Both the position numbers and the translations under genes were made by a program. Below the pieces are notes generated by a model. The model was not told the origin of the DNA. It did not search any database and was given only the letters and a program-made list of their open reading frames with translations. From Acidobacteriota bacterium (GTDB lineage Bacteria > Acidobacteriota > UBA6911 > RPQK01 > JAJDTT01): a stretch of DNA of 64,000 nt. Shown in pieces: positions 18,483 to 47,243 of the stretch (its first letter is position 1; the number at the start of each line of letters is the position of its first letter). The DNA is taken from assembly GCA_963668095.1 (NCBI GenBank), contig OY764083.1, positions 1,521,085 to 1,585,084 of the forward strand, written 5' to 3'.

Positions 18483-18590
18483 GAGAAGGGGACAGTCACG
18501 TTCTCGGTAGAAGGGGACACGCGGAGCGCGCTCCAGAAAAGGGGACAGTCACGTTCTCGCCCGGTCACGCCCGGTCACGTTCTCGCGCGC
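18483..18590 (+). repeat. two copies of the GGGACAGTCACGTTCTC motif plus GGTCACGTTCTCGC half-sites
   Basis: The full motifs lie at 18483-18505 and 18536-18560, with direct repeats of cccggtcacg at 18561-18586. This sits immediately upstream of the octaheme cytochrome operon. Confidence 0.8.
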
Positions 18591-18623
18591 GCTCGAGTGG
18601 TAATATTTATTGAAGGGAAGCGA

Positions 18624-19946
18624 ATGTCAGGACACTTCGGTCGCGAATTTTTCGACTCCCGACGGTGGCTGCACCGCATCCGCTTTTTCCTTCCGTTGCC
18701 CGTGCTGGCCTTGGTTTCATGTGGCGGCGAGACTTCGAAACAGGTCGCCTCGGACTGCGTCGAGTGCCACCGCGACGTGACACCCGGCATCGTCACGGAC
18801 TGGGAGTTGAGCCGTCACCATGCCGAGGGAGTGGACTGTTCCCTCTGCCATGGCGCCGAGCATCGCACGGCGGAGGACGTGGCGCTGGTGAAGACCGCGA
18901 CCCCCGATGTCTGCGCCACCTGCCATCCGATTCAGACGGAGCAGTTCCAAGGGGGCAAGCACGCCCTGGCCTGGGCCAGCATGAACGCCATGCCCACGAC
19001 GCATTGGCTCCCCATGGCCATGACCGAAGGCATGAAGGGCTGCGGCGGCTGCCATCGCGTCGGGCTCAAGAGCGAGGAGGAGATCCGGCAGTTGAAGGCC
19101 GACGGCGTCATGTTCGGCCTGGCGTCGTGCGACACCTGCCACACGCGCCACCTCTTTTCCGTCAAGGAGGCTCGCGAACCCCAAGCCTGCCGGACCTGCC
19201 ACATGGGAATCGACCATCCCCAGTGGGAGATGTACTCCTCGTCCAAACACGGCGTCCGGCATCTGCTCAAGCAGACGGGGGTCCTGCCGGAACAGGCGGC
19301 GGCGCCCACCTGCCAGACGTGCCACATGCCCAAGGGAAATCATGAGGTGCGGACCGCATGGGGATTCCTGGCCGTGCGGCTGCCCATGCCGGAGGACCCG
19401 GAGTGGGCGGCCGATCGGGCCACGATTCTCCAGGCCCTCGGCGTCCTGGACCCGGACGGCAAACCGACGCCCCGGCTGGAGGTGGTCAAGCAAGCCGACG
19501 TCGCCCGGCTGACTCATGAGGAGTGGCAGCACGAGCGCGACCGCATGATTCAAATCTGCGAGCAGTGCCACTCGTCAAACCTGGTGAAAGCGGAGTTGAA
19601 AAAGGGCGATGAGATGATTCGGGAGACCGACCGGCTGCTGGCCGAGGCGATCCGCATCATCGCTTCCCTCTACCGCGACGGCATCTTGCGGAAACCGGAC
19701 CACTACTCTTACGACTTCCCGGATCTGCTGGCTTTCCACGATGCTCCGTCGACGATCGAGCAGCGCCTCTTCAAGATGCACCTGGAGCACCGGATGCGCG
19801 CATTCCAGGGCACGTTTCACAACAATCCGGACTACGCGCTCTGGTACGGTTGGAGCGAGATGCTGCAGGACCTGACCGAGATCAGGACGCTGGCGCAGGA
19901 GTTGCGCGACAAGCACCAGCCGCCGGTGCGGAGTTCCGCCCGGTGA
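18624..19946 (+). CDS. octaheme c-type cytochrome, hydroxylamine-oxidoreductase (HAO)/ONR-like family
   Basis: Eight CxxCH motifs (CVECH, CSLCH, CATCH, CGGCH, CDTCH, CRTCH, CQTCH, CEQCH) and a signal-anchor. The size of about 440 aa fits HAO-like proteins. Confidence 0.6.
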   Translation: MSGHFGREFFDSRRWLHRIRFFLPLPVLALVSCGGETSKQVASDCVECHRDVTPGIVTDWELSRHHAEGVDCSLCHGAEHRTAEDVALVKTATPDVCATCHPIQTEQFQGGKHALAWASMNAMPTTHWLPMAMTEGMKGCGGCHRVGLKSEEEIRQLKADGVMFGLASCDTCHTRHLFSVKEAREPQACRTCHMGIDHPQWEMYSSSKHGVRHLLKQTGVLPEQAAAPTCQTCHMPKGNHEVRTAWGFLAVRLPMPEDPEWAADRATILQALGVLDPDGKPTPRLEVVKQADVARLTHEEWQHERDRMIQICEQCHSSNLVKAELKKGDEMIRETDRLLAEAIRIIASLYRDGILRKPDHYSYDFPDLLAFHDAPSTIEQRLFKMHLEHRMRAFQGTFHNNPDYALWYGWSEMLQDLTEIRTLAQELRDKHQPPVRSSAR

Positions 19947-20560
19947 CGGGCGAAGTCATCATCCTCGGCGTCCTGGGGATCGCAACTCTTGCGGTGATCG
20001 GGGCGCTCGTCCGCCGGCCCGAGTGGACCAACGGAGTCAGGGGCAAGATTCTCGCGTTTCTTGCACTCCTGGCTCTACCGGGGCTCTTGTTCGTGGGCGG
20101 AGCCGGCCGGCACTACGACCAGGCCAAGACAACCAGCTTCTGTCTCTCCTGTCACGTCATTCAACCCTACGGAGAGAGCCTTCACATCGACCATCCGCGG
20201 TTCCTTCCCGCCGCCCACTACCAGAACAAACTCATCCCCGCCGACAAGGCCTGCTACACGTGTCATACGAGTTACACCATGTTCGGGGACGTGGACGACA
20301 AGATCCGCGGCGTACGGCACGTCTGGCACAGCGTGATGGACACCGCGTCCGATCCGGTGAAGCTCTATGCGCCGTATGAGAACCGGGCCTGCCTGGAATG
20401 CCACGAAGGAGCCAGGTCCTACGAGGAGAACACGGTTCACGCGCCGTTTCGGACCGAACTGATGGCCGGCACGAAATCGTGTCTCATGTGCCACAACCTG
20501 ATTCACGAGGTCACGAAACTGGACCGGTTCGACCGCTGGGATCCGGAGGCGGCGCCATGA
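19943..20560 (+). CDS. NapC/NirT/NrfH-family tetraheme cytochrome c (membrane quinol dehydrogenase, cM552-like)
   Basis: An N-terminal TM helix with four CxxCH motifs (CLSCH, CYTCH, CLECH, CLMCH). The GTG start overlaps the stop of the upstream hao-like gene. Confidence 0.7.
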   Translation: MTGEVIILGVLGIATLAVIGALVRRPEWTNGVRGKILAFLALLALPGLLFVGGAGRHYDQAKTTSFCLSCHVIQPYGESLHIDHPRFLPAAHYQNKLIPADKACYTCHTSYTMFGDVDDKIRGVRHVWHSVMDTASDPVKLYAPYENRACLECHEGARSYEENTVHAPFRTELMAGTKSCLMCHNLIHEVTKLDRFDRWDPEAAP

Positions 20561-20769
20561 GTTGGATTCGATCGCTGGGCTTGCGAACCGGATTCGCCGG
20601 CCGCCTTCAACTCGCCGGACTGCTGATCGCGGCCGGGATCGTAGTGGAGTTGGGCACGCTGTTCTGGAACCACCCGATCTCCCTGTTCCTGTTCCTGACC
20701 TTGGGAGCGGGTCTGGTGGGAGCGGGCATGCTTCTCTACCTGTGGTCTGTCGTCACCCGGAGCGAGTGA
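20557..20769 (+). CDS. small membrane protein (2 TM), hypothetical
   Basis: 70 aa. An ATGA overlap links it to the NrfH-like gene, and it has two hydrophobic helices. Confidence 0.4.
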   Translation: MSWIRSLGLRTGFAGRLQLAGLLIAAGIVVELGTLFWNHPISLFLFLTLGAGLVGAGMLLYLWSVVTRSE

Positions 20770-20805
20770 CGCCCTTCGGAGCCGGACGAGTCCGGGAGAA
20801 AGGGA

Positions 20806-20828
20806 CAGTCACTTTCTCTGGAGGGGCG
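20806..20828 (+). repeat. GAGAAAGGGACAGTCACTTTCTC motif copy
   Basis: A perfect 7-bp inverted repeat flanks the GGGACAGTCA core. A gggcg...cgccc hairpin follows at about 20833-20851. Confidence 0.8.
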
Positions 20829-20889
20829 TCTTTCAGGCGCCCTCTTTCGCACCAACCATGCCCCATGGCCAGGGACTGCAGGTTGCGAG

Positions 20890-20912
20890 AGCGGGGGTAG
20901 GAAAACCCCCGC
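20890..20912. repeat. conserved GC hairpin (identical to 10659-10681)
   Basis: 23/23 nt identical to the other copy. Confidence 0.7.
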
Positions 20913-21032: not shown

Positions 21033-23723
21033 ATGAAAGTTCCTTTATGGCTGGTGGCCGGCGGACTTTTGTTCTCGATGGTCGCGGCGGCGCCGCCGGC
21101 CGCCGCGCAGTCCGGACAGATCGCGGGCGTGGTCGCCGACGCCACCGGCGGGGTGCTGCCCGGGGCGAGCGTCACGCTGACGGGCGGGCCGGATCGGCGT
21201 CTCCAGACGCAGACGGACGATAGCGGCCGTTTCACCTTCACGGGCCTCGATCCCGGCACCTACACGGTCACCGTCTCCCTCGGCGGCTTCGATGCCGAGT
21301 CGGTAGACGTTGCCGTCCGAACCGAACCGGTAGAGCTGCCGGTCATCACCCTGCAGCTTGCCGCCCTTGACGATGAGTTGGTCGTAACGGCGACCCGCAT
21401 GGAGGAGCCGCTGAGCATCTCGGTGGCGACCGGCGCGGATATCGAGCGGCAGCGAATAGGCAACCTGACGGAGCTGGCACGCTGGATGCCCGGCCTGACG
21501 GTGGTCGACCAGGGCGCGCGCGGCAGCAACGTCGTCATCGCACGCGGCCTGCACACGGACGCGCTGACCGGCTCCGAGCAGGCCGGCAACAACTACAACA
21601 ACGGCGTCGCCACCTACCTCGGCGACATCCCGCTGGCGGTGGACCTCCGGCTGCACGATATCGAGCGGGTGGAGGTCCTGCTCGGGCCGCAGGGGACGTT
21701 GTACGGCGCCGGCACGCTGGCGGGCGCCGTGCGCTACCTGCCGCGCCGCCCCGACACCGAGCGGCGCACGTTCGAGCTGCGCGGCGACGGGTTCGCGCTG
21801 GCGCACAGCAGCTCATTCGGCTCGGATGCCGGCTTCACCTTCAACCTGCCGATCATGACCGGGAAGCTTGCGCTGCGCGGCTCCGTCGACCGTTACACCA
21901 ATCCCGGATTCATCGACTATGACTATCTGCTGCGGACGCCCGGCGTCTCCGAGCCGGAGCCGGACCTGGCGGACCCCACCGCGGCGGCGGCCAATTTGCG
22001 GAGCGAGCCCAACGCCAACACCGAGGAGACGGTCTCGGCGCGGTTCTCGCTGCTGTGGCAGGCGACTCCGGAGTTATCGGCGCTGTTCGCCTATCACCTC
22101 CAGGATCAGCAGGTCGGAGCACGGCAGATCAATCATGCCCGGTCGTTCGACACCGGCCGCTACGTGGCGGCGCACCGATACCTGGAGCCCAGCGACCGCA
22201 GGAACCAGTTGTGGAGCCTGGAGCTGAGTTGGGCGCCGGGACCGGCGGAGCTGACCACCGCCGTGGGCTACTCCCGTTACTCCCAGCAGGGACAGCGCGA
22301 CCAGACCGACCTGTTGATCCAGGCGTTCGGCATCGCGGGGCTACTGCCGGGCGAGTTTCCGGCGCTGACTGAGGCGCGGGCCATCGATCCGGGCGTCTCT
22401 GCCACCGACCTGACGGCGCAGTTTCGCTCCTTCTCCGCTTATACCCGCGAGGATTCCCGGGAGAAGCGCCTCAACTGGGAGACGCGCTTGGTCTCGACCG
22501 GGGAGGGGCCGTGGCGTTGGGTCGGCGGCGTCTTCTTCAACCACTACGACAGCAACGGCACCAGCTTCGAATTCGCTCCCGGCCTCACGGAATTCTCCGG
22601 CGTCACGCCTGTCGTGGAGGGCAGCCCCGTGTCCGATCCGGTCGAGTACTACTCCCTCGGGAGTAGCGCAGTGGAGGAGCGGGCGCTGTTCGGTGAGATC
22701 TCGCGCGACCTTGGCGACCATTGGCGCGTGGCAGTCGGCGGCCGCTGGTTCGGGTACCGCATCGACACCGGCAGCGCGACCGAGTTCCCGTACACGCCCC
22801 TGTACAACTCGCCGTTCACCGCCTTCGATTCCCGCGACCGTGGCAAATTGTTCAAGGCCAGCGTCAGTTACCGGTTCGACGACCAGACAAACGCCTATTT
22901 CACCCGATCCGAGGGGTACCGCATCGGCGGCGGCAACAATTTCCGGGTCTGCACCGACGAGGAGATCACCCTGCTCACCGACGCGGATCCCGGGAACGAT
23001 CCACCGCAGTCCGGTTGCATCTACGAGGATCAGGCGCTGATCCGGCCGGACACGACAACCAACTACGAAGTGGGGCTGCGCCACTCGGATCGCGACGGCC
23101 GGTTCAGCGCCGGCGGCACACTGTTTCACGTCGACTGGAAGGATATCCAGGTGGCGGGTTTGACACCCTTCAGCGCGCAGCCGATCACGCTGAACGGCGG
23201 CGGAGCGGTCAGCCGCGGTGTCGAACTCACGGCGGCCGCCGACCCGACGACGGCGTTCCGCCTCCGCGGATCGTGGTCATTTGCACACGCCCAACTGAGC
23301 AAGGACTCCCCCGGGCTCCTCGAAGGGGGCGCCGACGCGTTCAAGGGAGACCGCCTCTCGGGCGCGCCGCGCCAGCAGGGCAGCCTGTTGGCCTCCTACA
23401 ACTGGCTCGTCGGCCGCAGCGTGGTCGAGCTGCTGTATGGCTACACGTATACCGGCGACGTGCTCACGCGCATCGGATTGCGCGCCGGCGGCGAGACCCT
23501 GCCGGCCTACGATCTCCACAACCTGTCGGCGTCGATCTCGAAGGACGACTGGACGCTGGAGTTCTACGCGAACAACCTGCTGGACGAGTACGCCGTCACC
23601 GGCGTGCGCCAGACACCGGCCTTCATCGGTGTGACCGACGAAGGCTTCCGGTCGCGGCGCTACTTCGCCAACGTGCTCACCCCGCGGCGGATCGGCGTCC
23701 GCCTCCGCTTTGCTTTTCGCTAG
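21033..23723 (+). CDS. TonB-dependent outer-membrane receptor with N-terminal CarboxypepD_reg-like domain
   Basis: A signal peptide, then GQIAGVVADATGGVLPGASVTLTG...DDSGRFTFTGLDPGTYTV, a plug domain and a 22-strand barrel over 896 aa. Confidence 0.85.
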   Translation: MKVPLWLVAGGLLFSMVAAAPPAAAQSGQIAGVVADATGGVLPGASVTLTGGPDRRLQTQTDDSGRFTFTGLDPGTYTVTVSLGGFDAESVDVAVRTEPVELPVITLQLAALDDELVVTATRMEEPLSISVATGADIERQRIGNLTELARWMPGLTVVDQGARGSNVVIARGLHTDALTGSEQAGNNYNNGVATYLGDIPLAVDLRLHDIERVEVLLGPQGTLYGAGTLAGAVRYLPRRPDTERRTFELRGDGFALAHSSSFGSDAGFTFNLPIMTGKLALRGSVDRYTNPGFIDYDYLLRTPGVSEPEPDLADPTAAAANLRSEPNANTEETVSARFSLLWQATPELSALFAYHLQDQQVGARQINHARSFDTGRYVAAHRYLEPSDRRNQLWSLELSWAPGPAELTTAVGYSRYSQQGQRDQTDLLIQAFGIAGLLPGEFPALTEARAIDPGVSATDLTAQFRSFSAYTREDSREKRLNWETRLVSTGEGPWRWVGGVFFNHYDSNGTSFEFAPGLTEFSGVTPVVEGSPVSDPVEYYSLGSSAVEERALFGEISRDLGDHWRVAVGGRWFGYRIDTGSATEFPYTPLYNSPFTAFDSRDRGKLFKASVSYRFDDQTNAYFTRSEGYRIGGGNNFRVCTDEEITLLTDADPGNDPPQSGCIYEDQALIRPDTTTNYEVGLRHSDRDGRFSAGGTLFHVDWKDIQVAGLTPFSAQPITLNGGGAVSRGVELTAAADPTTAFRLRGSWSFAHAQLSKDSPGLLEGGADAFKGDRLSGAPRQQGSLLASYNWLVGRSVVELLYGYTYTGDVLTRIGLRAGGETLPAYDLHNLSASISKDDWTLEFYANNLLDEYAVTGVRQTPAFIGVTDEGFRSRRYFANVLTPRRIGVRLRFAFR

Positions 23724-25106: not shown

Positions 25107-27443
25107 CTAAAAACTCATTTGGAGTCCGACGCGCGCGGTTCGCGGGATGGAGGGATGGGTGTGCACGTCGTCCACACCCGCTAACGGTTCCCCCGGGAGA
25201 CGCGACGTATAGAAGTAGTCGATGTCCGACACCGGGGAGTTCAGAAGGTTGAACACCTCGAACAAGATGGTGACGCGGCGGTTGAAGCGGATGCCGAGCC
25301 GGCCGTTCCAAACGGTCGTGGAATCGGACCTGGCGGAGTTGTCCTCGATCAAGGGCCGTGGTCCGAAATGGCGCACCCGGACGCTGCCGAACAATCGCTT
25401 CACCGGTTCGAACGTGAGGGCGCCGGAGAAAACGCGGTTGAGCGAACCGGGAATCCGCGATCCTGAGGGGTCGCGGTCCGAAAACCGCGCGGAGGTGAAC
25501 GCGAGGTCGGCCTCGGCGGTCATCCAGGGTGTGAGACGCATGTAGTTCGCCCACTCGATGCCGTAGCGGTAGCTTGGACGGCTGGCGGCCGTCACGCCCG
25601 CATCGCCCAGGAAGAGCAGCTCGGAATCGAAGTCCAGGTACCAGAGGGCCACCGTGGAATGCAGTCCCCGCGGCCTCACCGTCCGCACGCCGACTTCCCC
25701 GCCCCGCGCCTTGACCAGCGGACGGAAGCTCTCGGCCGGCTCGCCCGTGCGCGGGTCGATCCGGACGGTCGCGCCGCGCACGTCGTTGCTGTGGAAACCC
25801 TCGCCCCAGTTGGCATAGAACTCGGTCTGCCGCCACGGTCCCAGGATCGCCGTCAGCTTGGGGCTGACGATGGAATCCGCACCGGCGCCGGAGTTCACCG
25901 GATCTCTGGCGTCGACGGCGAAACGATAGATGTCGCCGCGAAGCCCGATGGAGGTCCGGAAGAACGAAGTCCAATCGAGCACACTCTCGCCGAATACGCC
26001 CAGCGACGTCTGGCGCAGCGCGTCCTCGCGCACCGTATTGGTGCGCCGCTGCCGAACCGTGTCATACAGACCGAGGACATTGGCGTCGTCGTGGCGCAAC
26101 TGGGTGCCGGCCTTCCATTCCAGGGGCCGTCCGAGAAACTGCCGCAGGCGCCGGTGGGTGAGCTTGGCACCGGTCGAGGTGCGGCGGTCCACTTGCTCGA
26201 ACTGATCCCCGTCGGCCGGATTGGCCAGAAAATAGGTGAAGTTCTGGATCAGGTTCAAGCCGTAACGCATGCCGAAGGCGGTGATCCGGGTCGAAGCCTC
26301 CCCGTTCGAGCGAAGGCTATCGGCGACGAGGCCGTGCCGGTAGGTTCGTCCGCCGCCGGTGGGATCGATTCCAGCGAACCGGTCGATCCGGCCCGATTCG
26401 ATGGCCCGCACCGGCACCTGGTCCGTTGCGTGCCAATTCGCCGCATAGCTCAGGCCGGTGATGGAGAAGCCGTTCTGCGTGTCTCCCCGGCTGTAGCGCA
26501 GAACGCCATTCACCTTGCGCAGCTCGTCGGGGTCGACCCAGGGACCGTCGTTTTTGCCCACCTCCACGCCGACGAGCAGGTTGCCGTCGCCCAGGCGCGG
26601 TGACGCGGCGCTGAAGAAGCGGCTCCAACCCTGGCCACCGACGCTGATGCTGGTCACCGGCTGCTCCAGCACGCTCAGGTAGCTGACGTTGGCCGAGCCG
26701 GCGGCGGAAAAGTCGCCGTCTTCGGCGAAGTACGGCCCCTTCTTGAACTGGATGCCGCTGACCAGCTCGGGAATGATCACGTTGGAGTCCGAGTAGCCGG
26801 AGGCGTGGGCGCCGGACGGCATGTTCAGGGGCATTCCGGCGACGGTGGTGGCGAAATCGGTTCCGTGATCCAGGTTGAAGCCACGCAGGTAGTACTGGTT
26901 GGCCTTCCCCTCGCCGCTGTGCTGGCTGATGACGAGGCCCGGAACCGTCTCCAGCACTTCGCCCGGGCGCATGACAGGCCGCGCCTGAAGTTGGGTCGCG
27001 GTGATGGCGCCGACGCTGGCGGCGGAGGCGATCCCGACCAGGTTCTCCGCCGGCTCCGGAAGGTCGGCGATGTTCCGCAATGTGGGCCGGGCGGTCACCA
27101 GGACGTCGGCGGTCAGGGAGAGCACCAGGACGAGATCCACCGTCAGGACCTCACCCGGGGCCACGGTCACCTCACGGCGGGCGCCGGCGAAGTTGATCCG
27201 CCGGAAAGTCAGCGTGGCCGGTCCCGTGGGAACCCCCTCGATGCGCCACTTCCCCGCGCCATCGGCGACGGAGGCGAGCTCGGCGCCGTCGGCCTCGAGG
27301 TTGACGAAGACTCCGGGAAGGACGCCCCCGGTCTCGTCGACGACGGTTCCGGTGAGGGTTCCGGTGGTTTCGGCGGCGGCGAAACCGGCACACGCCAGGA
27401 AAAGGAAGGCTGCAAGGGAGGAGGTTCTACGGAAGAGGACCAT
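25107..27443 (-). CDS. TonB-dependent receptor with CarboxypepD_reg-like N-domain
   Basis: A signal peptide, then TGTLTGTVVDETGGVLPGVFVNL, a plug and a beta-barrel. The protein ends in the aromatic terminal residue (...LQMSF). Confidence 0.85.
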   Translation of the reverse strand: MVLFRRTSSLAAFLFLACAGFAAAETTGTLTGTVVDETGGVLPGVFVNLEADGAELASVADGAGKWRIEGVPTGPATLTFRRINFAGARREVTVAPGEVLTVDLVLVLSLTADVLVTARPTLRNIADLPEPAENLVGIASAASVGAITATQLQARPVMRPGEVLETVPGLVISQHSGEGKANQYYLRGFNLDHGTDFATTVAGMPLNMPSGAHASGYSDSNVIIPELVSGIQFKKGPYFAEDGDFSAAGSANVSYLSVLEQPVTSISVGGQGWSRFFSAASPRLGDGNLLVGVEVGKNDGPWVDPDELRKVNGVLRYSRGDTQNGFSITGLSYAANWHATDQVPVRAIESGRIDRFAGIDPTGGGRTYRHGLVADSLRSNGEASTRITAFGMRYGLNLIQNFTYFLANPADGDQFEQVDRRTSTGAKLTHRRLRQFLGRPLEWKAGTQLRHDDANVLGLYDTVRQRRTNTVREDALRQTSLGVFGESVLDWTSFFRTSIGLRGDIYRFAVDARDPVNSGAGADSIVSPKLTAILGPWRQTEFYANWGEGFHSNDVRGATVRIDPRTGEPAESFRPLVKARGGEVGVRTVRPRGLHSTVALWYLDFDSELLFLGDAGVTAASRPSYRYGIEWANYMRLTPWMTAEADLAFTSARFSDRDPSGSRIPGSLNRVFSGALTFEPVKRLFGSVRVRHFGPRPLIEDNSARSDSTTVWNGRLGIRFNRRVTILFEVFNLLNSPVSDIDYFYTSRLPGEPLAGVDDVHTHPSIPRTARVGLQMSF

Positions 27444-27589
27444 AATCTCCAGTACGGCAAATTCACTGCGGGACCTGCGTCGTCCTTGGTCTGCGACCGG
27501 ACAGGAACTCGGGCGGGGTCCCGCCAGATTCGGCGAACGTGACCGGGAGGATTATACCGTCCTTTACTCCGCGCCGTCCCTTTTTCCGC

Positions 27590-28240
27590 GCTATGAATTC
27601 CGTCGAAGAGTGGTGCGCCAGTGACGACTGCCGCCTGCGCTATGGAAGCCGCCGGCGAATGAGAGGTTGCGCGAGTGTCAGGAGAGCCCAACGACGGCTC
27701 GGGAGAAACTACTTCCGGGCCAGCTCCCACGACTTCCGCGTGAATGTGATGTAACGCACGGGCGTCTTGCAAGTCTTGCAGATTGCTCCGCGTTTCCTGA
27801 CGTCGCGCTTGATGGCCCAGCCGCACGTGACGCACCGCGCGATATAGCGGGGCGGAGCAAATTCCACCGTGTGGCAGCGGTCGCCGGTGCATCCGACCGA
27901 ACGCGCGACCGCCTTCCAGGCGGCGTCATGATTGTGCTTGGGGCCGACCAGAGCGTGCGCGATCTCGTGGAGAATCGTGTCCCTGACCTGCGGGCCGGTG
28001 GCGTGCAGGCAATAGAGGCGGGAGAGCCCGATGACCTTGAGTCCGAAATCGCAGACTCCCGCCCGCTTGGAGGCATCCTCGAACTGAAAGCTCCATCCCG
28101 TGAGTCCGTGCCGGCTTATCAGCCGCTCCGCCTCCGCCGCAACTTCGGCCAGTTTCCTGCCATCGTCGCGATCAGGATTCCGGCCGGCTCGTGTCAGCAG
28201 ACCATAAGGAACGTATTAGCTTCCGTTTTCCGTGGCGACC
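27590..28240. repeat. ~650-bp segmental duplicate of 29293-29943 (3' end of EEP gene + 3' two-thirds of SprT-like gene)
   Basis: Over 95% identity at a 1703-bp offset. The SprT-like copy here has a TAA stop where the full copy reads ATEHGSYY, so this copy is a fragment. Confidence 0.85.
27709..28230 (-). pseudogene. SprT-like metalloprotease, N-terminally truncated duplicate
   Basis: It keeps the HEIAH and zinc-ribbon C-terminal portion but loses the N-terminus after an in-frame stop. Confidence 0.6.
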
Positions 28241-28262
28241 AGGGCGCACGCACCGGACGGGG

Positions 28263-28285
28263 GAAGTAGACTGTCCCTTTCTCGC
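28263..28285 (-). repeat. GGGACAGTC motif copy (reverse orientation) at the duplication junction
   Basis: The reverse complement reads gcgagaaagggacagtctacttc. Confidence 0.75.
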
Positions 28286-28486: not shown

Positions 28487-29365
28487 ATGCCAACAAAATT
28501 AGTGTGTTGGAACATCGCAAAAAGACACGAGGCTTGGAGACAACTGGTGAAAATGGATGCTGACGTCGCCTTGCTTCAAGAAGCCGGGAAAATACCAACC
28601 GACGTTGCCGGCAAGGTCCAAACCGGTGGAAAGGAACATTGGGACCCACACACATGGAACTCGCGTTGGTATGAAGGGCGATTCAAGAAACTATTCGACC
28701 GCTTCCCAATGATCGTGAAGCTCTCCGACCGTGTCCAAGTCGAATGGTTCAAGCAGGTTAGCCCGATCAGCGAAACGACGGAGGACGAGATCGCGGTCAG
28801 TGGAATCGGCACGATTGCCGCGGCGAGGGTCATCCCATCCGATGCCCCGCCGTTCATCGTTGTGTCCATGTATGCGCGCTGGATCAGTCCGCATCCGTCT
28901 ACCAAGAGTAAGTGGAGCGTAGGCAACTCCGATGTTTCGGCTCACCGCATTCTCTCTGACCTTTCGGCATTCATAGGCAGCTACGACCCGAGCACGCATC
29001 GAATTCTGGCAGCGGGCGACCTCAACATGGTCTACGACGGTATTGACCATGCTCCGTCGGTGCCTGGGTCCCGCGACCGCGGCGTGTTTGGCAGGATGGC
29101 CGCGCTCGGCTTGGAATTCATGGGACCGCAATATCCGGCGGGAAGGCTGGCGCGCCGAATATCCGGAGGCTCGCCGCCCGATCCTCGGAACGTGCCTACT
29201 TACCACACGGTCCGCAAGTCTCCCGCGACGGCCCAGCTCCAGCTCGATTATGCGTTCGCCTCCCGCGGCTTCCACAAGACCGTCAAGGTACGCGCCATGA
29301 ATTCCGTCGAAGAGTGGGGCGCCAGTGACCACTGCCGCCTACTCATCGAAGTCGCAGATCAATGA
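28487..29365 (+). CDS. endonuclease/exonuclease/phosphatase (EEP) family protein
   Basis: 292 aa. The N-terminal MPTKLVCWNIAKRHEAW...DADVALLQEA and C-terminal AAGDLNMV...SDHCRL patterns match the EEP fold. Confidence 0.55.
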   Translation: MPTKLVCWNIAKRHEAWRQLVKMDADVALLQEAGKIPTDVAGKVQTGGKEHWDPHTWNSRWYEGRFKKLFDRFPMIVKLSDRVQVEWFKQVSPISETTEDEIAVSGIGTIAAARVIPSDAPPFIVVSMYARWISPHPSTKSKWSVGNSDVSAHRILSDLSAFIGSYDPSTHRILAAGDLNMVYDGIDHAPSVPGSRDRGVFGRMAALGLEFMGPQYPAGRLARRISGGSPPDPRNVPTYHTVRKSPATAQLQLDYAFASRGFHKTVKVRAMNSVEEWGASDHCRLLIEVADQ

Positions 29366-29411
29366 GAGGTTGCGCGAGTGTCAGGAGAGCCCAACGACGG
29401 CCCGGGAGAAA

Positions 29412-30245
29412 CTACTTCCGGGCCAGCTCCCACGACTTCCGCGTGAATGTGATGTAACGCACGGGCGTCTTGCAAGTCTTGCAGATTGCTCCCCGTTTCC
29501 TGACGTCGCGCTTGATGGCCCAGCCGCACGTGACGCACCGCGCAATATAGCGGGGCGGAGCAAATTCCACCGTGTGGCAGCGGTCGCCGGTGCATCCGAC
29601 CGAACGCGCGACCGCCTTCCAGGCGGCGTCATGATTGTGCTTGGGGCCGACCAGGGCGTGCGCGATCTCGTGGAGAATCGTGTCCCTGACCTGCGGGCCG
29701 GTGGCGTGCAGGCAATAGAGGCGGGAGAGCCCGATGACCTTGAGTCCGAAATCGCAGACTCCCGCCCGCTTGGAGGCATCCTCGAACTGAAAGCTCCATC
29801 CCGTGAGTCCGTGCCGGCTCATCAGCCGCTCCGCCTCCGCCGCAACTTCGGCCAGTTTCCTGCCATCGTCGCGATCAGGATTCCGGCCGGCTCGTGTCAG
29901 CAGACCATAAGGAACGTAGTAGCTTCCGTGCTCCGTGGCGACCAGGGCGCGCTTGGGTCCGAGACGCGCGAGGACACCTTCAATGGCGCCCTGACCGTGC
30001 GGGACCAGGACCTCGTCATCCGGGCGGAATCGGGCTTTGAACCGGTCCCGCCTCAGAGCCACTCGCTTTCTACTTCCACCTTCGTTACGAGCGAGGAAGT
30101 CCCACGGCACCCCGTAGTCGGTGCCGTCCTCCCCCACGACTTCGGCTTTCCGAGGAGTCTTGCGTGCGATGTGCCCGCTGATCCAGACACCCTGGTCCCG
30201 GAACTTCACGGGATCATGAATGCAGAACTGCGTGGCGCTAGACAC
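29412..30245 (-). CDS. SprT-like zinc metalloprotease with C-terminal zinc ribbon
   Basis: A HEIAHALVGPKHNHD zincin motif and a CVTCGW...CKTCKTP ribbon. It is convergent with the EEP gene. Confidence 0.7.
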   Translation of the reverse strand: MSSATQFCIHDPVKFRDQGVWISGHIARKTPRKAEVVGEDGTDYGVPWDFLARNEGGSRKRVALRRDRFKARFRPDDEVLVPHGQGAIEGVLARLGPKRALVATEHGSYYVPYGLLTRAGRNPDRDDGRKLAEVAAEAERLMSRHGLTGWSFQFEDASKRAGVCDFGLKVIGLSRLYCLHATGPQVRDTILHEIAHALVGPKHNHDAAWKAVARSVGCTGDRCHTVEFAPPRYIARCVTCGWAIKRDVRKRGAICKTCKTPVRYITFTRKSWELARK

Positions 30246-30976: not shown

Positions 30977-31321
30977 ATGAAACAGCCCATCACGCCCGGA
31001 GAGATTTTGCTCGAGGAGTACCTCAAACCGATGGGGATTTCACAGAATGCCATGGCTCGAGCCATCGGTGTCTCCCCAAGGGCGATCAACGAAATCGTCC
31101 TTGGCCGACGGTCGATCACTCCGCCCATGTCGATCCGTTTTGGCGCCTTCTTTGGTCAGTCGGACGAATTCTGGCATGGCATCCAAGTCGAGTGCGACTT
31201 CCGCAAGCTGGCAGGGGACAGGAACCGACTGGTTGCCGACATTCAACCGGCTGCGGCCGTAGCGGCCCGTGGCGACAGCCGCCGCGGCGCTCGACCGACG
31301 CTGCAATCTGGACGCGCGTAA
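30977..31321 (+). CDS. higA: HigA antitoxin (XRE-family HTH)
   Basis: [37 protein letters not shown] is the classic HigA HTH sequence. It follows the higB remnant. Confidence 0.75.
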
Positions 31322-31469
31322 CTACAGGTGGTCCCAATCGTCTCCGAAACACTGGAGAAGTTGACTGCCCCTCTCTCGTTCCCACCGAAGTTGTCGATTG
31401 CCGCCTTTGCGGAGTCGTCTGGCTTGAGGGTGTGTTTCCTAAATGCACACATTGTGTAATTACTGGATC

Positions 31470-37027: not shown

Positions 37028-37051
37028 GGAGATGTAGACTGTCGCTTTCTC
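37028..37051 (-). repeat. GGGACAGTC-family motif copy (variant GCGACAGTC)
   Basis: The reverse complement reads cgagaaagcgacagtctacatctc. It sits upstream of a compositionally distinct gene. Confidence 0.65.
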
Positions 37052-39574: not shown

Positions 39575-39598
39575 GGGAGAAGTGACTGTCCCTTTCCC
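39575..39598 (-). repeat. GGGACAGTCAC motif copy
   Basis: The reverse complement reads gggaaagggacagtcacttctccc. It sits immediately downstream of the GmrSD-AlbA gene. Confidence 0.75.
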
Positions 39599-39943: not shown

Positions 39944-42900
39944 TCACCTGCTTACGGAGGGTCGCCCAAGCGTGGCAACCGGGCGGTACGCGAGCCGGAA
40001 CGACGTATCGCTAACCCAACTTTTGAAATCCGGATCGTCCATGAACTTCTTGAACAACTGAGTATCGTCCTTCATTACGGCCATCATGACTCGCAAAAGA
40101 GCGTTGTCGTGCTCGATGCGCGCGTTTTCCCGGTCCGAGTTTTCTTGAGCGTTCTTGAAAGCGGTGTCCTGCGCGACTCGTGAAGGAATCGTTTCGGTGA
40201 TGAGCCGGTGCACGCGGTCCGCGTCCTCCCAGGGAATGTTGCCGAAGAGATCGTTGAAAGCCTTGATGATGTTCGAGAGGCGGTCCAACTCGGTCTCGCC
40301 AGGGCTACCGGGACCGGAGTCCCAACCGGGGCTGATCTCGGCATCCTCATCCGACAGAATGATCTTCTGCACCGCCCGTTTCTCGACCCGGTAGCTGTCC
40401 ATGTCGATGGCGTCGAGGATGCCCTTTGACAGATCGTCCTCACGCGGCGACGGCAGCTTCGAGACCAGGAAATTCAGGAAAATCGAGCGTTCTTCCCACC
40501 CGGCATTGTTGTACGGAAGGACCGAGGAGAGGATGGCGTAGGTTCTCAGGAAACCCTTGGCCTGGCGCTTGAACTGAACCTGCTCGTCTTTCTCCAGGTC
40601 CTGCAGGTACGCCGCCACGCAGGCATCGAGGATGGGATCGAGTTCCTCACGGTCCTCGCCGGCCAAGTAGCGCGACACGAACTCTTTGACCTGCTGGCGG
40701 GAATAGACCTGGGCGCCGTCCAGATCTGCCTGGAGGTCGTGCAGCTTGTTGGGATCGGTCTCGTCGGCCAGGATCGTCGCTCGATAGTAGTCGGCGAAGG
40801 CGTCGCGGATGGTGTCCGACTCGTTCAGGAAATCCAGCACGAACACGTCGTGCTTCTTGGGGTGCGCCCGGTTGAGCCGGGAGAGGGTCTGGACCGCCTT
40901 GATGCCGGAGAGCGTCTTGTCAACGTACATCGTGTGCAGCAGAGGTTCGTCGTAGCCGGTCTGGAACTTGTCCGCACAGACCAGAAAGCGGTACGGATCC
41001 TCCCGGAACCTCTCGGCAATCTTGTTCGACGGAAAGCCGTTCAGCTTAGGCTCGCTCAGCTTCGCCCCGCCGTACTCATGCTTCCCCGAGAAGGCCACGA
41101 TGGCCTAGTAGCGGCTCTTTCGTTCCTTCAGGTAGTCGCGGATGGCATGGTAGTACTGGATCGCCCGTTCAATCCCGTTGGTGACGACCATCGCCCGGGC
41201 TCTGCCGCCGATCTTGCCACGGGACAGGACCTGGGTGTGGAAGTGGTCCACCATGATCTCCGACTTGAGGCGGATCGCGTGGTCGTGCCCTTCGACGTAG
41301 CGCCGCAGCTTCCTGCGGGCCTTCTTAACGTCGAATTCGGGATCGTCCTCCACCGCCTTGGCGAGCTTGTAGTAGCTCCTGACCGGCGTGTAGTGGCGCA
41401 GCACGTCCAGGATGAAACCCTCCTGGATCGCCTGCTTCATGCTGTAGGTGTGAAAGGCGTGATGCCGGACCGTACCGTCGCTCTGCGGGTCCGCATCGCC
41501 GAAGATCTCCAGCGTCTTGTTCTTGGGCGTGGCGGTGAAGGCGAAGTAGCTGGCGTTGGAAAGGATCTTGCGCGATTCCATCACGCGGCTGATCCGATCC
41601 TCGTAGGTTTCCTCGTCCTCGGCTTCTCCCGCCTTGCCCAGCGCCTTGGACATGGCTGCGGCGGTGCGGCCCCCCTGGCTTGAGTGGGCCTCGTCGATGA
41701 TGATGGCAAAATGCCTCCCGCGATGTTCGTTGCCGATCTCATCGAGAATGAAGGGGAACTTCTGGATCGTCGAGATTATGATCTTCTTGCCGGACTCAAT
41801 GAACCGCCGCAGGTCGCCAGAACGCTCAGCGTGTCCCACCGTCGAGCGCACCTGGGCGTATTTCCTGATCGTGTCTCGGATCTGCCGGTCGAGGATACGG
41901 CGGTCGGTGACGACGATGATCGAGTCGAAGACCGGAGCGTCGTCCTTTTCCAGCCGGATCAGTTGGTGGGCCAGCCATGCGATCGAAAAGCTCTTCCCGC
42001 TACCCGCCGAGTGCTGGACCAGATAACGCTTCCCCGCGCCGCGGGCTCCCGCGTCGGCCAGGAGCTCGCGCACCGCGTCGATCTGGTGATAACGCGGCCA
42101 GATCTGGACTCGCCGCTTCTTCCCCGTCTTGGCGTCCTTCGATTCCACGACCTGGGCGTAGTTCTCAAGGATGTTGGTCAGGCTCCGGCGGGTCAGCACC
42201 TGGCGCCAAAGGTAGTTCGACCGCAGGCCGTTGGGGTTGGGAGGGTTTCCCGCACCGTCATTCCAACCCCGGTTGAAGGGCAGGAACCAGGAGGCCTTTC
42301 CCTTGAGATGGGTGCAGAAACGGACCTCGTTCTCGTCTACCGCGAAGTGGGCCGCACAACGGCCGAACTCGAAGAGCTTCTCGCGCGGGTTGCGGTCCTT
42401 CCTGTACTGCTCCATGGCGTCGCTCACCGTCTGCTTGGTGAGGCGGTTCTTGAGTTCGAAGGTGAAGACGGGAAGGCCATTGATGAAAAGTCCGATGTCG
42501 AGTGCGCGGTGGGTGCCGTGCCGGCCGTAGCGGAGCTGACGGGTGACGGTGAAGCGATTCTGCCGGAAGCGCCTCTTGGCCTGCTCGTTCTCGGGCGAGG
42601 GGGTTCCGTAGAAGAGGTCGAGTTCGTGGGGACCGTGCCGGATGCCGTTTCGGAGGATGTCGATGGTGCCGCGTTTGGAGATCTCGCCCTGCAACCGGGC
42701 AAGGAACCTGCGGCGTCCGGGGCCGTCTTCGGTCAGTCGCAGGGCCGTGGCGGTTTCGGGTTGGGTGGTTTTCAGGAAGGCGCGGAGTTGGACCAGATCG
42801 ACGCAGTACTCACGATTGTAGTCGCGGTGGTTGCCGCAGGACCAGCCGACGCCACCGTAGCTGGCGGGGGGTTGGCTGACCGTACCCGTTGCCGGCGGGT

Positions 42901-42973
42901 CGCAGGGATCGCCGGTCAGGGCCTTGCAGATAAGACTTTCAAGGCCGCGTTCGGTCGTGTCGGTGGTCGCCAT
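39944..42973 (-). pseudogene. hsdR: type I restriction enzyme R subunit (HsdR) interrupted by one in-frame TAG
   Basis: N-terminal nuclease and helicase motifs (HSAGSGKS, IIDEAHSSQ) sit in 41105-42973. The C-terminal HsdR domain sits in 39944-41098, in the same frame. A single amber codon at 41105-41107 (...KSRY*AIVAFSGK...) separates the two halves. Confidence 0.85.
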
Positions 42974-43527: not shown

Positions 43528-44915
43528 CGAGCTACGTCCTCTGGCATCTCAGTAGTGTTTTCAAGCTTGATCGTGTCTGTCGGCGCGTCGAGTTCTTCCG
43601 ACATTGCGACCGCCGCCTCGCGGACATCGAGCTTACCCGTGACGACATCGGCGATCAGGCGCGCGCGGTATTCGCGGAGCATTTCGATTTGCCGGCGGGT
43701 CCGATTGATGATGTGGTCGGTCTCAAGGATAATCTCGTTTAGAAACTCGACGATAGCCTGCTGCTCGCCGACCGTTGGTACCGGCACGGGAATCTGTCCA
43801 CATTGGTCAAAATAGAGACGCAGTCTCATATCCATGATACCCCTAGAGCGTTTCTTGAACTGTGCCAGATAGATCCGTGTTCTGAACAGGTGATGGTAAT
43901 AGTCTGACGCTAGATCAACAATTGGCATTAATATATCATATGCGGGGCTCGTAACACCATCATAATGGGAAACTCCAACAGCGCCCATCCACGCTAACAA
44001 CTTATTTAAGATTAAATCTCCCTTTTTCACAATCCAATAATCATCAGTTGTTGAAGCCTTATTACCTTTTTCCTCAAGTTCCTTTCTAGGACGCACTCCA
44101 ATATGTGTGTAAATCGATAAAAGCTCCCTGCCGTGCGCAACACCTGATTTTTCCGTTCGTAGTCTGAACATCGTCTTTATCCGCCGCACTTCCCAATGCG
44201 CCGGAACATGGGCGAATCCGTCCACGCCGGAGGCGTTGTAGGCTGGGTAGGGCTGGCCAGTTCGGACATCGATCTGGCCCGTCACGGCTTGGTGGATGAT
44301 GGCCTGCTTCTGCTCCTCCAGAAGCTCGATCAGCCTTTCCTTGGCCCGGATGTAGCGCCGGATGCGACTGTCGGCGTGATCGAGGAAGCGGCCGATTTCA
44401 GCTTGCTCACCTGCCGGAGGAACGGGGAATGGGGCTCCAAGAAAGGCATCGTCCGTCAACTGGAGGCGGGATATCCAGATACCCTTAGAGCGTACTCGCA
44501 GTTCCCAATTGAATGGTTCCGAACGCAGGAGCGTGTCGATGTAGGCGGCGGATACGTCCATCGGGTGCCTTAAGCGGTATACGCCGTAGGCAGTGCTAAC
44601 GATGCCGTGGCACTGAGATATTCCTAGCCCACGGCTCCATGCCCATAGGCTATTGATGACAAGATCCCCAGGCCAGCAAAGCTTATGACCAACGTAGGAT
44701 TCAGCCTTAAACATCGTGACAGCGGTAGACTTCCTCGGTACGACCCCACGGTCTGACGACACTGTGAGCAACTCTTCTTCCCCAGTTGCCGAACGCTCAT
44801 CGATACAGCGGAAGAGTACTTTGCCACGCAGAACTTCCCAGTGCTCAGGTATAAGACCCAACCATTCCACACCAGAATCCATGTAGGTCGGATAGGGCTT
44901 GAGATCGGTGATCAT
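43524..44915 (-). CDS. hsdS: type I restriction-modification specificity subunit (HsdS)
   Basis: Two target-recognition-domain halves with a conserved central and C-terminal coiled region. A 4-nt overlap links it with hsdM. The second TRD (about 43840-44110) is markedly AT-rich. Confidence 0.85.
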   Translation of the reverse strand: MITDLKPYPTYMDSGVEWLGLIPEHWEVLRGKVLFRCIDERSATGEEELLTVSSDRGVVPRKSTAVTMFKAESYVGHKLCWPGDLVINSLWAWSRGLGISQCHGIVSTAYGVYRLRHPMDVSAAYIDTLLRSEPFNWELRVRSKGIWISRLQLTDDAFLGAPFPVPPAGEQAEIGRFLDHADSRIRRYIRAKERLIELLEEQKQAIIHQAVTGQIDVRTGQPYPAYNASGVDGFAHVPAHWEVRRIKTMFRLRTEKSGVAHGRELLSIYTHIGVRPRKELEEKGNKASTTDDYWIVKKGDLILNKLLAWMGAVGVSHYDGVTSPAYDILMPIVDLASDYYHHLFRTRIYLAQFKKRSRGIMDMRLRLYFDQCGQIPVPVPTVGEQQAIVEFLNEIILETDHIINRTRRQIEMLREYRARLIADVVTGKLDVREAAVAMSEELDAPTDTIKLENTTEMPEDVAR

Positions 44916-46894
44916 GACCCTCCTTCGCCCAGGATCTCAGTTAGCAACCCTTCCGTCTCTTGCTCCAGCGCCAGGATGTCAGCGCGGATCTCTTCCAGCG
45001 TGCGCATCGGCTCAGGCTTGTAGAAATATCGATTGAAACTGATTTCGTAGCCGATCTTCACTTTTTTCGGCGGATACCATGCGTCGCCGGCATAGGGTAC
45101 AACCTCGCGAATCAAGAACCCATCAATGCCTCCCTCCTCCAACAGAGGGATCTGTTCGGTGTCGCGCAGATTGGTGTCCGGTTCGTACTCCACCACGGCA
45201 GATCGCCCATTGATGGTAGTTCTGAATAGGCCGTGAAGGGGGTTGGGTTCGGTCCCCCGCTTGTGAATCTTTTTGATCACGGCCGGTGCCGTCTCACTCC
45301 GCTCGCCACTTGCTTTCAGTCTTCTGATCTCCGCAGCCTTGTATGCACGGCTGGAGTCAATACCTTCGATCCGCAACGGCCTTTCCACCGTCACCTTCCA
45401 GTAGCCGAAGGCGGCATTGTCGAAGATCTTGCTCTCCTCGTTCTCCTCGAACCCGAGGAACGTCTCGCAGATCCAAGCAATGTCCTCTTCAGCGAGTTCG
45501 CAGTTCTTCTTTCCCAGGTTTTTCCGCAAAGGCTGGAATCTCTTCGTAGCGTCGATTAGCTGCACCTTGCCCTTCCGGTGATCCGGTTTCCGGTTTGTGA
45601 GGACCCAGACATAGGTGGCGATGCCGGTGTTGTAGAACATGTTGAGCGGCAGAGCGACGATCGCTTCCAACCAGTCGTTCTCGATGATCCAACGACGGAT
45701 GTTGCTCTCCCCCTGGCCGGCATCACCAGTGAAAAGGGAACTGCCGTTATGGACCTCGGCGATCCGGCTGCCGAGGGGCGTATGCTCCTTCATCTTGGAG
45801 AGTTTGTTGGCGAGAAACAACATCTGACCGTCGCTGGTCCGTGTGACCAGGGAACATTCGGGATCGCCCGCATGCTCGATCACGAAACGCGGGTCGAGCA
45901 TCTCCTTCTTGCCGCCCATGCGCGCCAAGTCGCTCTTCCAGCTCTTGCCGTAGGGTGGATTGGAGAGCATGAAGTCGAACTCGCTGGACGGGAAAGCGTC
46001 GTTGGCGAGTGTCGAGTGCTCGGGTCCGCCCACGATGTTGTCGGCCGCCGCGCCTTCCCCTTTCAGCAGCAGGTCGGCCTTGCAGATGGCGTAAGTCTCG
46101 GCGTTGATCTCCTGGCCGTAGAGGTGGGTGGAGACCTTCTTGCCCCGCTCGGCAGCGAGCCGCGACAGGGTCTCCTCGGCCACCGTCAACATGCCGCCGG
46201 TCCCGCAGGCGCCGTCGTAGAGCAGGTAAGTTCCGGACTTGATCTCGTCGGCGATGGGTAGGAAGAGGAGCTTCGCCATAAGCGTCACGGCGTCCCGCGG
46301 GGTCCAGTGTTCCCCCGCCTCCTCGTTGTTCTCCTCGTTGAAGCGCCGGACCAGCTCTTCGAAGATCGACCCAATCCCGTGGTTGTCGAGGCCGGGATGC
46401 CGCACGGACCTGTCAGCATTCAGGACCGGGTCGGGACTCAGATTGATTTCCGGCGAAGTGAGCTTCTCGATCATCGAGCCCAAGGCATCGGCCCTGGACA
46501 GCCGTGGAATCTGGTTGCGGAATTCGAAGTTGTCCAGAATGTCCTGAACGTTGGGAGAAAAGCCGTCCAGGTAGGCCTTGAAGTCGGCCGTGAGCTGCTG
46601 CCGGTTGCCGCGGGACCTCAAGTCGCGCAAGGTGAACTTCGAGGTGTTGTAGAATTCCTGTTCCGAGGCCTGCCGCAGGGCCGGATCCTGCTCGACGATA
46701 CCCAGCCCATCGAGACTGGCTTTCATATCAAGCACGGCCTGCTTCGTGTCCTCGAGCACCACATCCAGCCGCCGCAGGACGGTCATGGGAAGAATGACGT
46801 CGCGGTACTTGCCACGCACGTAGAGATCGCGCAGAACGTCGTCGGCGATGCCCCAGATGTAGTTGGCGATCCAGTTCAGATCGTTGCTGCTCAT
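44912..46894 (-). CDS. hsdM: type I restriction-modification N6-adenine methyltransferase subunit (HsdM)
   Basis: The NPPY motif (LSNPPYGKSW), the AdoMet motif (DGACGTGGML) and an HsdM N-terminal domain. The ORF track extends to 46975; the start is placed here at MSSNDLNW. Confidence 0.9.
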   Translation of the reverse strand: MSSNDLNWIANYIWGIADDVLRDLYVRGKYRDVILPMTVLRRLDVVLEDTKQAVLDMKASLDGLGIVEQDPALRQASEQEFYNTSKFTLRDLRSRGNRQQLTADFKAYLDGFSPNVQDILDNFEFRNQIPRLSRADALGSMIEKLTSPEINLSPDPVLNADRSVRHPGLDNHGIGSIFEELVRRFNEENNEEAGEHWTPRDAVTLMAKLLFLPIADEIKSGTYLLYDGACGTGGMLTVAEETLSRLAAERGKKVSTHLYGQEINAETYAICKADLLLKGEGAAADNIVGGPEHSTLANDAFPSSEFDFMLSNPPYGKSWKSDLARMGGKKEMLDPRFVIEHAGDPECSLVTRTSDGQMLFLANKLSKMKEHTPLGSRIAEVHNGSSLFTGDAGQGESNIRRWIIENDWLEAIVALPLNMFYNTGIATYVWVLTNRKPDHRKGKVQLIDATKRFQPLRKNLGKKNCELAEEDIAWICETFLGFEENEESKIFDNAAFGYWKVTVERPLRIEGIDSSRAYKAAEIRRLKASGERSETAPAVIKKIHKRGTEPNPLHGLFRTTINGRSAVVEYEPDTNLRDTEQIPLLEEGGIDGFLIREVVPYAGDAWYPPKKVKIGYEISFNRYFYKPEPMRTLEEIRADILALEQETEGLLTEILGEGGS

Positions 46895-47220
46895 TGGATA
46901 CTCAGGATATCTCAAACTGTCCAGAATCCCAGGATACCGGGAGTATTCCGGCGGGATGAAACTTGGTCCTGGCATTGCGACACCGATTTGGTAGTGGACT
47001 CTCCCGTTCTCTCAGTGGAGCATCGGTTCTTCGTCCCGTGCGGGCGATCCGGCTCTTTTGCGGCCCCTGGAAAACGCGGAGACTTCTCGTATGCTCCCCC
47101 ACCGGTCGCGGGCCGGCGGAATCCAGACAGAAAAAGAATGGTCTGGGAGCGTCGGCTCTCCGCCGTCAGACTCCGATGGAGCCAGAGGAAGAGGAGCAAT
47201 GGGGGGACAAGAAAAAGCGT

Positions 47221-47243
47221 GAAGGGAACAGTCACGTTCTTGC
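47221..47243 (+). repeat. GGGAACAGTCACGTTCTTG motif copy
   Basis: It lies upstream of hsdM, at the boundary to an AT-rich segment and the IS elements. Confidence 0.7.

Follow-up and report, generated by a model that had tools for sequence, protein, structure and literature searches.

A short sequence element recurs between the genes of a 64,000-nucleotide stretch of DNA from a soil Acidobacteriota lineage (contig OY764083.1 of assembly GCA_963668095.1; hereafter the window), and it very probably represents a short, non-autonomous repeat family of the repetitive extragenic palindrome (REP) or 'TIR-repeat' (terminal inverted repeat) type, belonging to a RayT/TIRYT-like Y1 (HUH) transposase encoded elsewhere in the genome. 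The repeat would be selfish or domesticated DNA of a known kind, and the readings as a gene switch or a cassette site are not supported. The class itself is known, and what is new is a RAYT/TIRYT-associated repeat family in uncultured Acidobacteriota. The original prediction had offered an operator, a recombination site, and an element like a REP or a miniature inverted-repeat transposable element (MITE) as possible explanations. The REP-like option is the one that is borne out, as the element is an extragenic repeat of high copy number, and its core, which fits the consensus GGGGWSAS, is also found in inverted arrangement on either side of RayT-like Y1 transposase genes.

An 11-mer, GGGACAGTCAC, that had been counted seven times in the window (G+C content 60.8%) is present as an exact match at four sites (18489 +, 18542 +, 20802 + and 39582 -), where 0.03 would be expected, and one mismatch adds a further site at 47225 (+). 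Similarly, GAGAARGGGACAGTCACKTTCTC with up to three mismatches matches four distinct sites, compared to 0.00 in shuffled sequences, and the site at 20796 scores on both strands. The repeated palindromic motif is nevertheless real and non-random when it is described as a 23-mer, GAGAAGGGGACAGTCAC[CGT]TTCTC, which is an imperfect palindrome with an 11-1-11 arrangement of its arms. This model has nine copies in the window at up to five mismatches (~0 expected; Table 1), about one per 7 kb. Three of the positions listed earlier (28261, 37029 and 47219) are degenerate variants, the copies at 31355 and 60607 had been missed, and the coordinates were 0-10 nt off (20806 becomes 20796, and 47221 becomes 47219). 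The claim that every copy is intergenic holds for all nine, which lie between open reading frames (ORFs) with Pfam support or clear codon bias.

The distribution of the element was assessed by scanning one genome per species (GTDB, 596 Gb) with GAGAARGGGACAGTCAC. This returned at least 112 loci, to be read against ~140 chance matches expected in 596 Gb by our own arithmetic, and many of them are singletons in unrelated taxa, often within conserved clostridial coding sequence. The clostridial 17-mer matches (...DYDREKGTVT...; L011, L014, L017, L065, L083, L089, L096 and L101) are chance or coding matches outside the repeat family, and the singleton matches of the scan are not members of it either. 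At least ~60 loci come from a few Acidobacteriota metagenome-assembled genomes (MAGs), mostly long-read (OZ241897, OZ246889, OZ253580, OZ242374, CBDCJH01 and CATOST01), and among the matches listed these loci often hold two to six copies per 8 kb. One of them, L032 (OZ246889, 4.592 Mb), is collinear with the window from 18.2 to 25.2 kb at 94.7% identity, therefore the window derives from a close relative of the OZ246889 MAG. In 551 kb of Acidobacteriota loci, in which genes were called with our own codon-bias ORF caller and not with a standard gene finder, 138 copies were found at up to four mismatches, and 127 of these are located outside confident genes (63% of the sequence).

Alignment of the Acidobacteriota copies revealed that each position of the 17-nt core, GAGAAGGGGACAGTCAC, is more than 90% conserved, while positions 18-23 are loose (position 18 is C in 58, G in 45 and T in 34 copies). 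No compensatory change of the left arm accompanies the tail variation in this alignment, including pair 6:18, and the sequence beyond the 23-mer is not conserved among copies. The core is also present in Planctomycetota and Proteobacteria, where it is followed by lineage-specific 3' tails, often repeated together with GGTCAC: CATTTAGG in OZ244623, AAATCTT in a Planctomycetota MAG, TTTTAGAA (three times) in a Sedimentisphaerales MAG and TTTTCC in Allosphingosinicella. A 7-bp stem of -3.6 to -6.5 kcal/mol at best is possible for the main subtype, and in the same folding-energy test no fold was found for the gene-flanking and other-lineage variants. The palindrome is thus a trait of the tail in the window lineage and not of the whole repeat family. 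In two of the other genomes the core also occurs within tandem arrays of 110-240-bp units (L038, 3830-4750, in OZ244623; L051, 7200-7800, in Planctomycetota JBCDEM010000043), the units of which end in the core GAGAAGGGGACAGTCA plus the lineage-specific tail repeated with GGTCAC; those of L051 also start with inverted GGGGACAGGCA. Neither these arrays nor the whole window matched Rfam, and the repeat sequence itself is absent from the searchable literature, as the search gave unrelated primers only.

A candidate enzyme was found among the fetched loci, where L081:106-1044 encodes a protein with a Y1_Tnp match (Pfam, 27 bits). It has 381 homologues at E<=1e-5, some of which are named 'REP element-mobilizing transposase RayT' by JGI, and among those listed there are three paralogues in each of three motif-rich genomes and one in each of three others. 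The RayT-like protein is ~311 aa long and carries an insertion between the HUH and Y motifs; an NHFH motif is present in the family, and NH[FY]H and LYVELNAVRAG (YVELN) are invariant in the alignment. The NCBIfam model REP_Tyr_transpos is matched at E 7e-13 over positions 3-144 of 146. Searches of the PDB with the protein sequence and with its profile yielded no transposase match, and the relation to RAYT emerged only through family hidden Markov models and fold comparison. An AlphaFold2 (AF2) model (pLDDT 79.6) has its best fold match in the structure of E. coli RAYT in complex with a REP hairpin (4ER8); the TnpA proteins of IS608, IS200 and ISDra2 come next. The C-terminal ~130 aa (133 aa) have no Pfam match even at E 10, including no helix-turn-helix (HTH), and this region is modelled as helical with lower confidence. 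A C-terminal HTH domain (Bac_DnaA_C/HTH_23/HTH_28-like) characterises TIRYT subclass 2.1, and the size of the protein, its insertion and its copy number also resemble TnpA_REP subclass 2.3, so that it may belong to either.

The surroundings of the transposase genes tie them to the repeat. Ten gene copies were read. Eight are close paralogues and come from four Acidobacteriota genomes, and the other two are distant homologues (~54-57% identity). Upstream, at 140-310 bp, all ten carry one to three '+' cores. Downstream, at 180-370 bp, nine of them carry one to five '-' cores, and in the tenth, L119, the sequence stops ~300 bp past the gene. In the reading of distant homologues, the context of L118 held no core. 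Every copy that flanks a RayT-like gene contains GGGGACAG (or GGGACAG), and this inverted arrangement of cores, in contrast to the co-oriented dispersed copies, is the REPtron/TIRtron layout. The RAYT-like genes known as TIRYT, four of them from cultured Acidobacteria, have inverted repeats with a common GGGGWSAS on either side, and some of these repeats are also scattered through the genome (Di Nocera et al. 2013, PMC3733652). The same consensus is given as GGGG[AT][CG]A[CG] by Quentin et al. (2018, PMC6006769), and the GGGGACAG part of the core fits both forms.

The RayT-like paralogues are 84-90% identical and occupy recurrent syntenic slots across genomes, one between secA-LPG synthase and a cytochrome c-Mo oxidoreductase and another between an ABC-ATPase and a TonB receptor. 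In these shared chromosomal neighbourhoods they behave as domesticated RAYTs, not as insertion sequences (IS), and no tnpB adjoins them. Clustering of 1901 ORFs near copies showed that only common families recur (HigA-type HTH proteins, GFO/IDH oxidoreductases, esterases and IS transposases), and their geometry relative to the copies is not fixed.

Several observations weigh against assigning the dispersed repeat to this transposase. The REP_Tyr_transpos score, 48.6 bits, is below the cut-off of 80. The main dispersed type and the copies around RayT-like genes have only GAAGGGGACAGTC in common; the latter end in GTCTGTTTTYC or GTCTCGATTCCC and not in GTCAC[CGT]TTCTC, and none of the seven close paralogues read had main-subtype flanks. 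The window contains no RayT-like gene, so the link rests on related genomes, and mobility is suggested by comparisons at a few loci. In addition, the dispersed copies depart from the classical REP systems of E. coli (TnpAREP) and Pseudomonas: they have no GTAG or CGTC foot, their hairpin is weak and uncompensated, and they are co-oriented singletons, not the inverted doublets of bacterial interspersed mosaic elements (BIMEs) and REPINs.

In other respects the likeness to classical REP/RAYT systems is considerable, as both comprise short, high-copy, extragenic imperfect palindromes together with a domesticated-looking, repeat-flanked Y1 enzyme at conserved chromosomal positions, and both show variable arrays, partial duplications and an association with rearrangement and IS insertion points. 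Unlike the single classical RAYT, however, several paralogues are present per genome here. TIRtrons/TIRYT and TnpA_REP class 2 (PMC3733652, PMC6006769) are similar in that a RayT-like Y1/HUH gene is accompanied by GGGGWSAS inverted repeats, the repeat is dispersed in the genome, a typical GTAG-foot hairpin is lacking, and the group has been described in Acidobacteria among other phyla. The present family differs from them in its great abundance, in a 17-nt core common to Acidobacteriota, Planctomycetota and Proteobacteria, in the size and insertion of the protein, and in dispersed copies whose 3' tail is not that of the gene-flanking copies and which are nearly always co-oriented. The Y1 HUH fold is also shared with IS200/IS605 elements (IS608, ISDra2), whereas the 23-bp dispersed units carry no gene and lack tnpB, subterminal hairpins and near-identical full-length copies. 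Membership of IS200/IS605 was rejected, as the transposase is not inside the dispersed unit and its paralogues are syntenic, diverged from each other and free of an adjoining tnpB. A MITE was rejected as well, given the unconserved flanks beyond the 23-mer, the co-oriented singleton copies and the absence of any regular target-site duplication among them.

Comparison of orthologous sites shows that dispersed copies differ in presence among close relatives. The copy at 18483 is common to the window and OZ246889, while that at 18536 and the neighbouring half-copies are not in OZ246889; at the orthologous site of OZ253580 the whole 18483-18536 block is missing, and the flanks and the hao-like gene are conserved. 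At the 20796 site OZ246889 has an extra 11-nt duplicate of the left arm. Such partial copies are frequent in the family, and they are polar. A partial left half (...GGGGAC) is found directly upstream of 23 of 137 copies and directly downstream of 3, and a partial right half (GTCAC plus tail) directly downstream of 9 of 137 and upstream of 1, so that the half-copy duplications pivot on the central A (...GGGGAC / A / GTCAC...). TnpAREP cuts on both sides of REP in vitro, and strand transfer with primed synthesis then leads to multi-REP arrays and variants (PMC3333891). Cleavage and rejoining beside ACA|GTC would produce the half-copy pattern, which in this respect would match the in vitro behaviour of TnpAREP. 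We propose that the transposase would recognise the core and cut and rejoin one DNA strand beside ACA|GTC, and that strand transfer or 3'-OH priming, as in the BIME-growth model (Ton-Hoang 2012), would copy the unit to new intergenic sites and yield half-copy duplications. If the reaction took place on one specific single strand, copies would become co-oriented within a chromosomal region, and once in place they could be weak spots at which indels, IS insertions and rearrangements occur.

An unusual feature of the family is that neighbouring copies point the same way almost without exception. All copies have the same direction in 35 of 37 multi-copy loci, and adjacent copies are co-oriented both at less than 500 bp (24 co-oriented, 1 opposed) and at 500 bp or more (56 co-oriented, 3 opposed). 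Their orientation is independent of gene strand: classified by flanking genes, 26 copies are convergent, 21 divergent, 34 tandem-opposite and 12 tandem-same, and the coding bases relative to the motif strand amount to 129 versus 152 kb. In OZ253580 the sampled loci fall into two orientation domains, and on the 6.2-Mb circle ~3.1 Mb separate one switch from the other; OZ246889 and CBDCJH01 have more switches. The genes at the 2.27-2.29 Mb switch of OZ253580 point to neither origin nor terminus, the component of skew in G+C at third codon positions (GC3) is +0.019 and not significant (its confidence interval includes 0), and tRNA orientation as a proxy for replication is limited to only five tRNA genes. 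The most economical reading of co-orientation would be a strand-specific chemistry on single-stranded DNA, as in IS608 and ISDra2, since in the IS200/IS605 family this leads to an orientation bias relative to replication. We tentatively extend this to a strand-polar REP family, in which the enzyme would act on one single strand, probably the lagging-strand template, giving one orientation per replication domain, and in which half-copies would record cleavage at ACA|GTC; this extension is possible, and considerably more doubtful than the assignment to a RayT-like transposase. A stronger version of the strand-polar reading would have the co-oriented copies, which start with the octamer GAGAAGGG, co-opted as chromosome polarity marks.

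That octamer is identical to the SpoIIIE recognition sequence (SRS) of B. subtilis, and the repeat might accordingly be a chromosome-polarity or architecture signal in its own right, read by a DNA-tracking or nucleoid protein as FtsK and SpoIIIE read the FtsK orienting polar sequences (KOPS) and SRS, with orientation under selection relative to replication or segregation and the RayT link secondary. The co-orientation of distant copies irrespective of gene strand and the two domains of OZ253580 would agree with such a role, but GAGAAGGG inside genes is not skewed with the motif strand (10 versus 7), and KOPS-type words are short and also occur in genes, while here a 17-23-mer is confined to intergenic DNA. 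Moreover, the many switches in other genomes and the non-significant GC3-skew component argue against a polarity signal, which also leaves the inverted copies around RayT genes and the half-copy duplications unexplained, and we consider it unlikely. A role at the RNA level, as a stabiliser in the 3' untranslated region (3'-UTR) or a terminator hairpin, has been proposed for many REPs. The tail side of the motif is turned towards a gene's 3' end 68 times versus 38, the copy at 20796 lies between a stop codon and a terminator-like hairpin, and the main subtype can form its 7-bp stem; these points are countered by the indifference of orientation to gene strand, the lack of compensatory stem variation, the RayT-flanking and other-lineage variants that do not fold and the absence of a match in Rfam, which together make such a role very unlikely. 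Even less likely is the first of the options in the original prediction, an operator to which a transcription factor would bind as to a palindrome, with the HigA/XRE-type HTH proteins that abound nearby as an example of such factors. The 11-1-11 palindrome, the two copies 85-140 bp upstream of the hao-like gene and the HigA-type HTH_3 genes that recur near copies in 11 other loci would suit an operator. On the other hand, copies are found between convergent, divergent and tandem genes alike, with convergent placement as frequent as divergent, the right arm is poorly conserved and the tails of other lineages are not complementary to the left arm, the density in the window is high, and the distance from HTH gene to nearest copy varies from 12 to more than 2000 bp. 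The statistics of position and orientation led us to reject a promoter, sigma-54 or operator reading.

It remains to consider whether the copies delimit modules, as had been proposed on the grounds that they bracket discrete units. They do flank the units named, among them the GmrSD-AlbA gene and the type I restriction-modification (RM) locus, and several lie at points of change. Homology with L016 and L102 ends at 20796, and the TonB receptor gene at 21033-23723, directly beside that copy, is missing there; in L111 a copy is 19 bp away from the end of a truncated M19 peptidase fragment; in L067 a 372-bp fragment of the end of the IS5/IS1182-like IS of the window sits between two copies; and, as had been noticed, a copy (28261) lies near, 14 bp from, the end of a direct duplication of 661 bp in the window (27587-28247 and 29291-29950, 97% identical). 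REPs are known to abut breakpoints of indels and rearrangements. Among the 48 homology end-points, 21 have a copy within 100 bp in either genome and 14 have one within 22 bp, but this enrichment is not clearly above that of any intergenic feature: breakpoints and copies are both confined to intergenic DNA, therefore no excess is demonstrable. A dedicated site-specific recombination site (integron attC-like or dif-module-like) that shuffles gene cassettes is the least likely of the alternatives. Neither an integrase nor a recombinase turned up among the ORFs scanned, and 23 bp with a 1-bp centre is unlike attC (~55-140 bp) or Xer sites (6-8-bp spacer). The units flanked in the window are multi-gene and of mixed orientation, unlike an integron cassette array. 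The view that flanked modules come and go as cassettes is not supported either, as the hao/NrfH operon persists in OZ253580 without its upstream copies and, in the loci compared, none of the segments with a copy at each end was observed to move, or to be present or absent, as a unit. What survives of the recombination option is that copies often abut indel and rearrangement breakpoints. Since the element occupies a large share of the intergenic regions in this lineage, pairs around modules are expected and are no evidence that the motifs define modules; the bracketing is most readily explained by an intergenic repeat that is very common and at the same time a fragile site. The apparent bracketing of variable modules, such as the defence genes of the window, would then follow from copies acting as weak points.

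Table 1. Full, variant and partial copies of the repeat in the window (positions are those of the window).
Feature	Position	Strand	Context
Full copy GAGAAGGGGACAGTCACGTTCTC	18483..18505	+	~140 bp 5' of multihaem (hao-like) gene; kept in OZ246889 (L032), missing at orthologous OZ253580 site (L102)
Partial left-half duplicate AGAAGGGGAC	18509..18518	+	Within hypervariable stretch 18506-18590, unlike L032
Full copy GAAAAGGGGACAGTCACGTTCTC	18536..18558	+	Missing in L032 and L102
Right-half partial duplications GGTCAC-GCCC-GGTCACGTTCTC	18563..18584	+	
Full copy GAGAAAGGGACAGTCACTTTCTC	20796..20818	+	27 bp past stop of last cytochrome-operon gene, ahead of terminator-like hairpin
Variant copy GAGAAAGGGACAGTCTACTTCCC, GTCTA subtype	28261..28283	-	14 bp from end of 661-bp duplication
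Degenerate copy GAGAGAGGGGCAGTCAACTTCTC	31355..31377	-	Between HigA-like HTH and BrnT-like genes
Degenerate variant GAGAAAGCGACAGTCTACATCTC	37029..37051	-	Between divergent M19 peptidase and GmrSD-AlbA genes
Copy GGGAAAGGGACAGTCAC-TTCTCC, exact core, tail 1 base short	39576..39598	-	Between convergent GmrSD-AlbA and HTH genes
Variant GTGAAGGGAACAGTCACGTTCTT	47219..47241	+	Between hsdM start and IS5/IS1182-like IS
Degenerate copy GAGAAAGGGACAGCCTGCTTCTC	60607..60629	-	Between IS-like repeat and GmrSD gene end

The copies of the window are set among genes for TonB-dependent receptors with CarboxypepD_reg domains, a multihaem cytochrome/NapC-NirT operon, GmrSD-type nucleases, a type I RM system and several IS. 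The IS5/IS1182-like IS (~47640-49322) encodes a DDE_Tnp_1_6 + DUF772 transposase (47742-49247, -) and has terminal inverted repeats CTAGGAGGCTGTCCGA. Next to it, two inverted copies of an IS-like unit (49320-51405 and 58267-60352; 2086 bp, 99.95% identical), each encoding a 574-aa protein with very high GC3 and no Pfam match, bracket ~6.9 kb with a TPR protein, an IS1595 transposase, a BglII-like endonuclease and a PIN-TPR-GreABC protein, in the manner of a composite-transposon-like defence island. The R subunit of the type I system is found in two adjacent ORFs (39944-41098 and 41105-42973, -), the N-terminal part with HSDR_N/SWI2_SNF2/ResIII and the C-terminal part T1R_D3-like, and this two-ORF hsdR may be frameshifted or split. 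A difference of ~1.6 kb between the window and OZ246889 falls inside the TonB receptor gene at 25107-27443. Two HigA-type HTH_3 antitoxin paralogues (30977-31321 and 62695-62991) share 85% nucleotide identity. Furthermore, a second dispersed repeat is present at 2262-2503, where a ~120-bp unit is repeated in tandem (96% identical), with a related inverted copy at 14627-14744. It holds the palindrome GGGGACGGCAGTCCCC and a terminator-like hairpin, GGGCGATTGGAAATCGCCCC, and this hairpin is also found downstream of a RayT gene in another genome (L115, ~6255-6290).

REP-type repeats and domesticated Y1 transposases are widespread. Three features of the present family bear on how the repeats multiply, namely the 17-nt core conserved across phyla, the polar half-copies pointing to the cut site, and the near-perfect co-orientation of neighbours. 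For genome annotation, copies of the repeat should be masked and not read as operators, and the framing of defence and cytochrome modules by the motif is explained by common intergenic repeats and fragile points, not by regulatory or cassette signals. The features that most deserve further attention are the co-orientation and the polar micro-duplications: if the strand-polar reading is true, this lineage would offer a natural read-out of how REP-type repeats spread, with a 17-nt recognition core that is common to several phyla.

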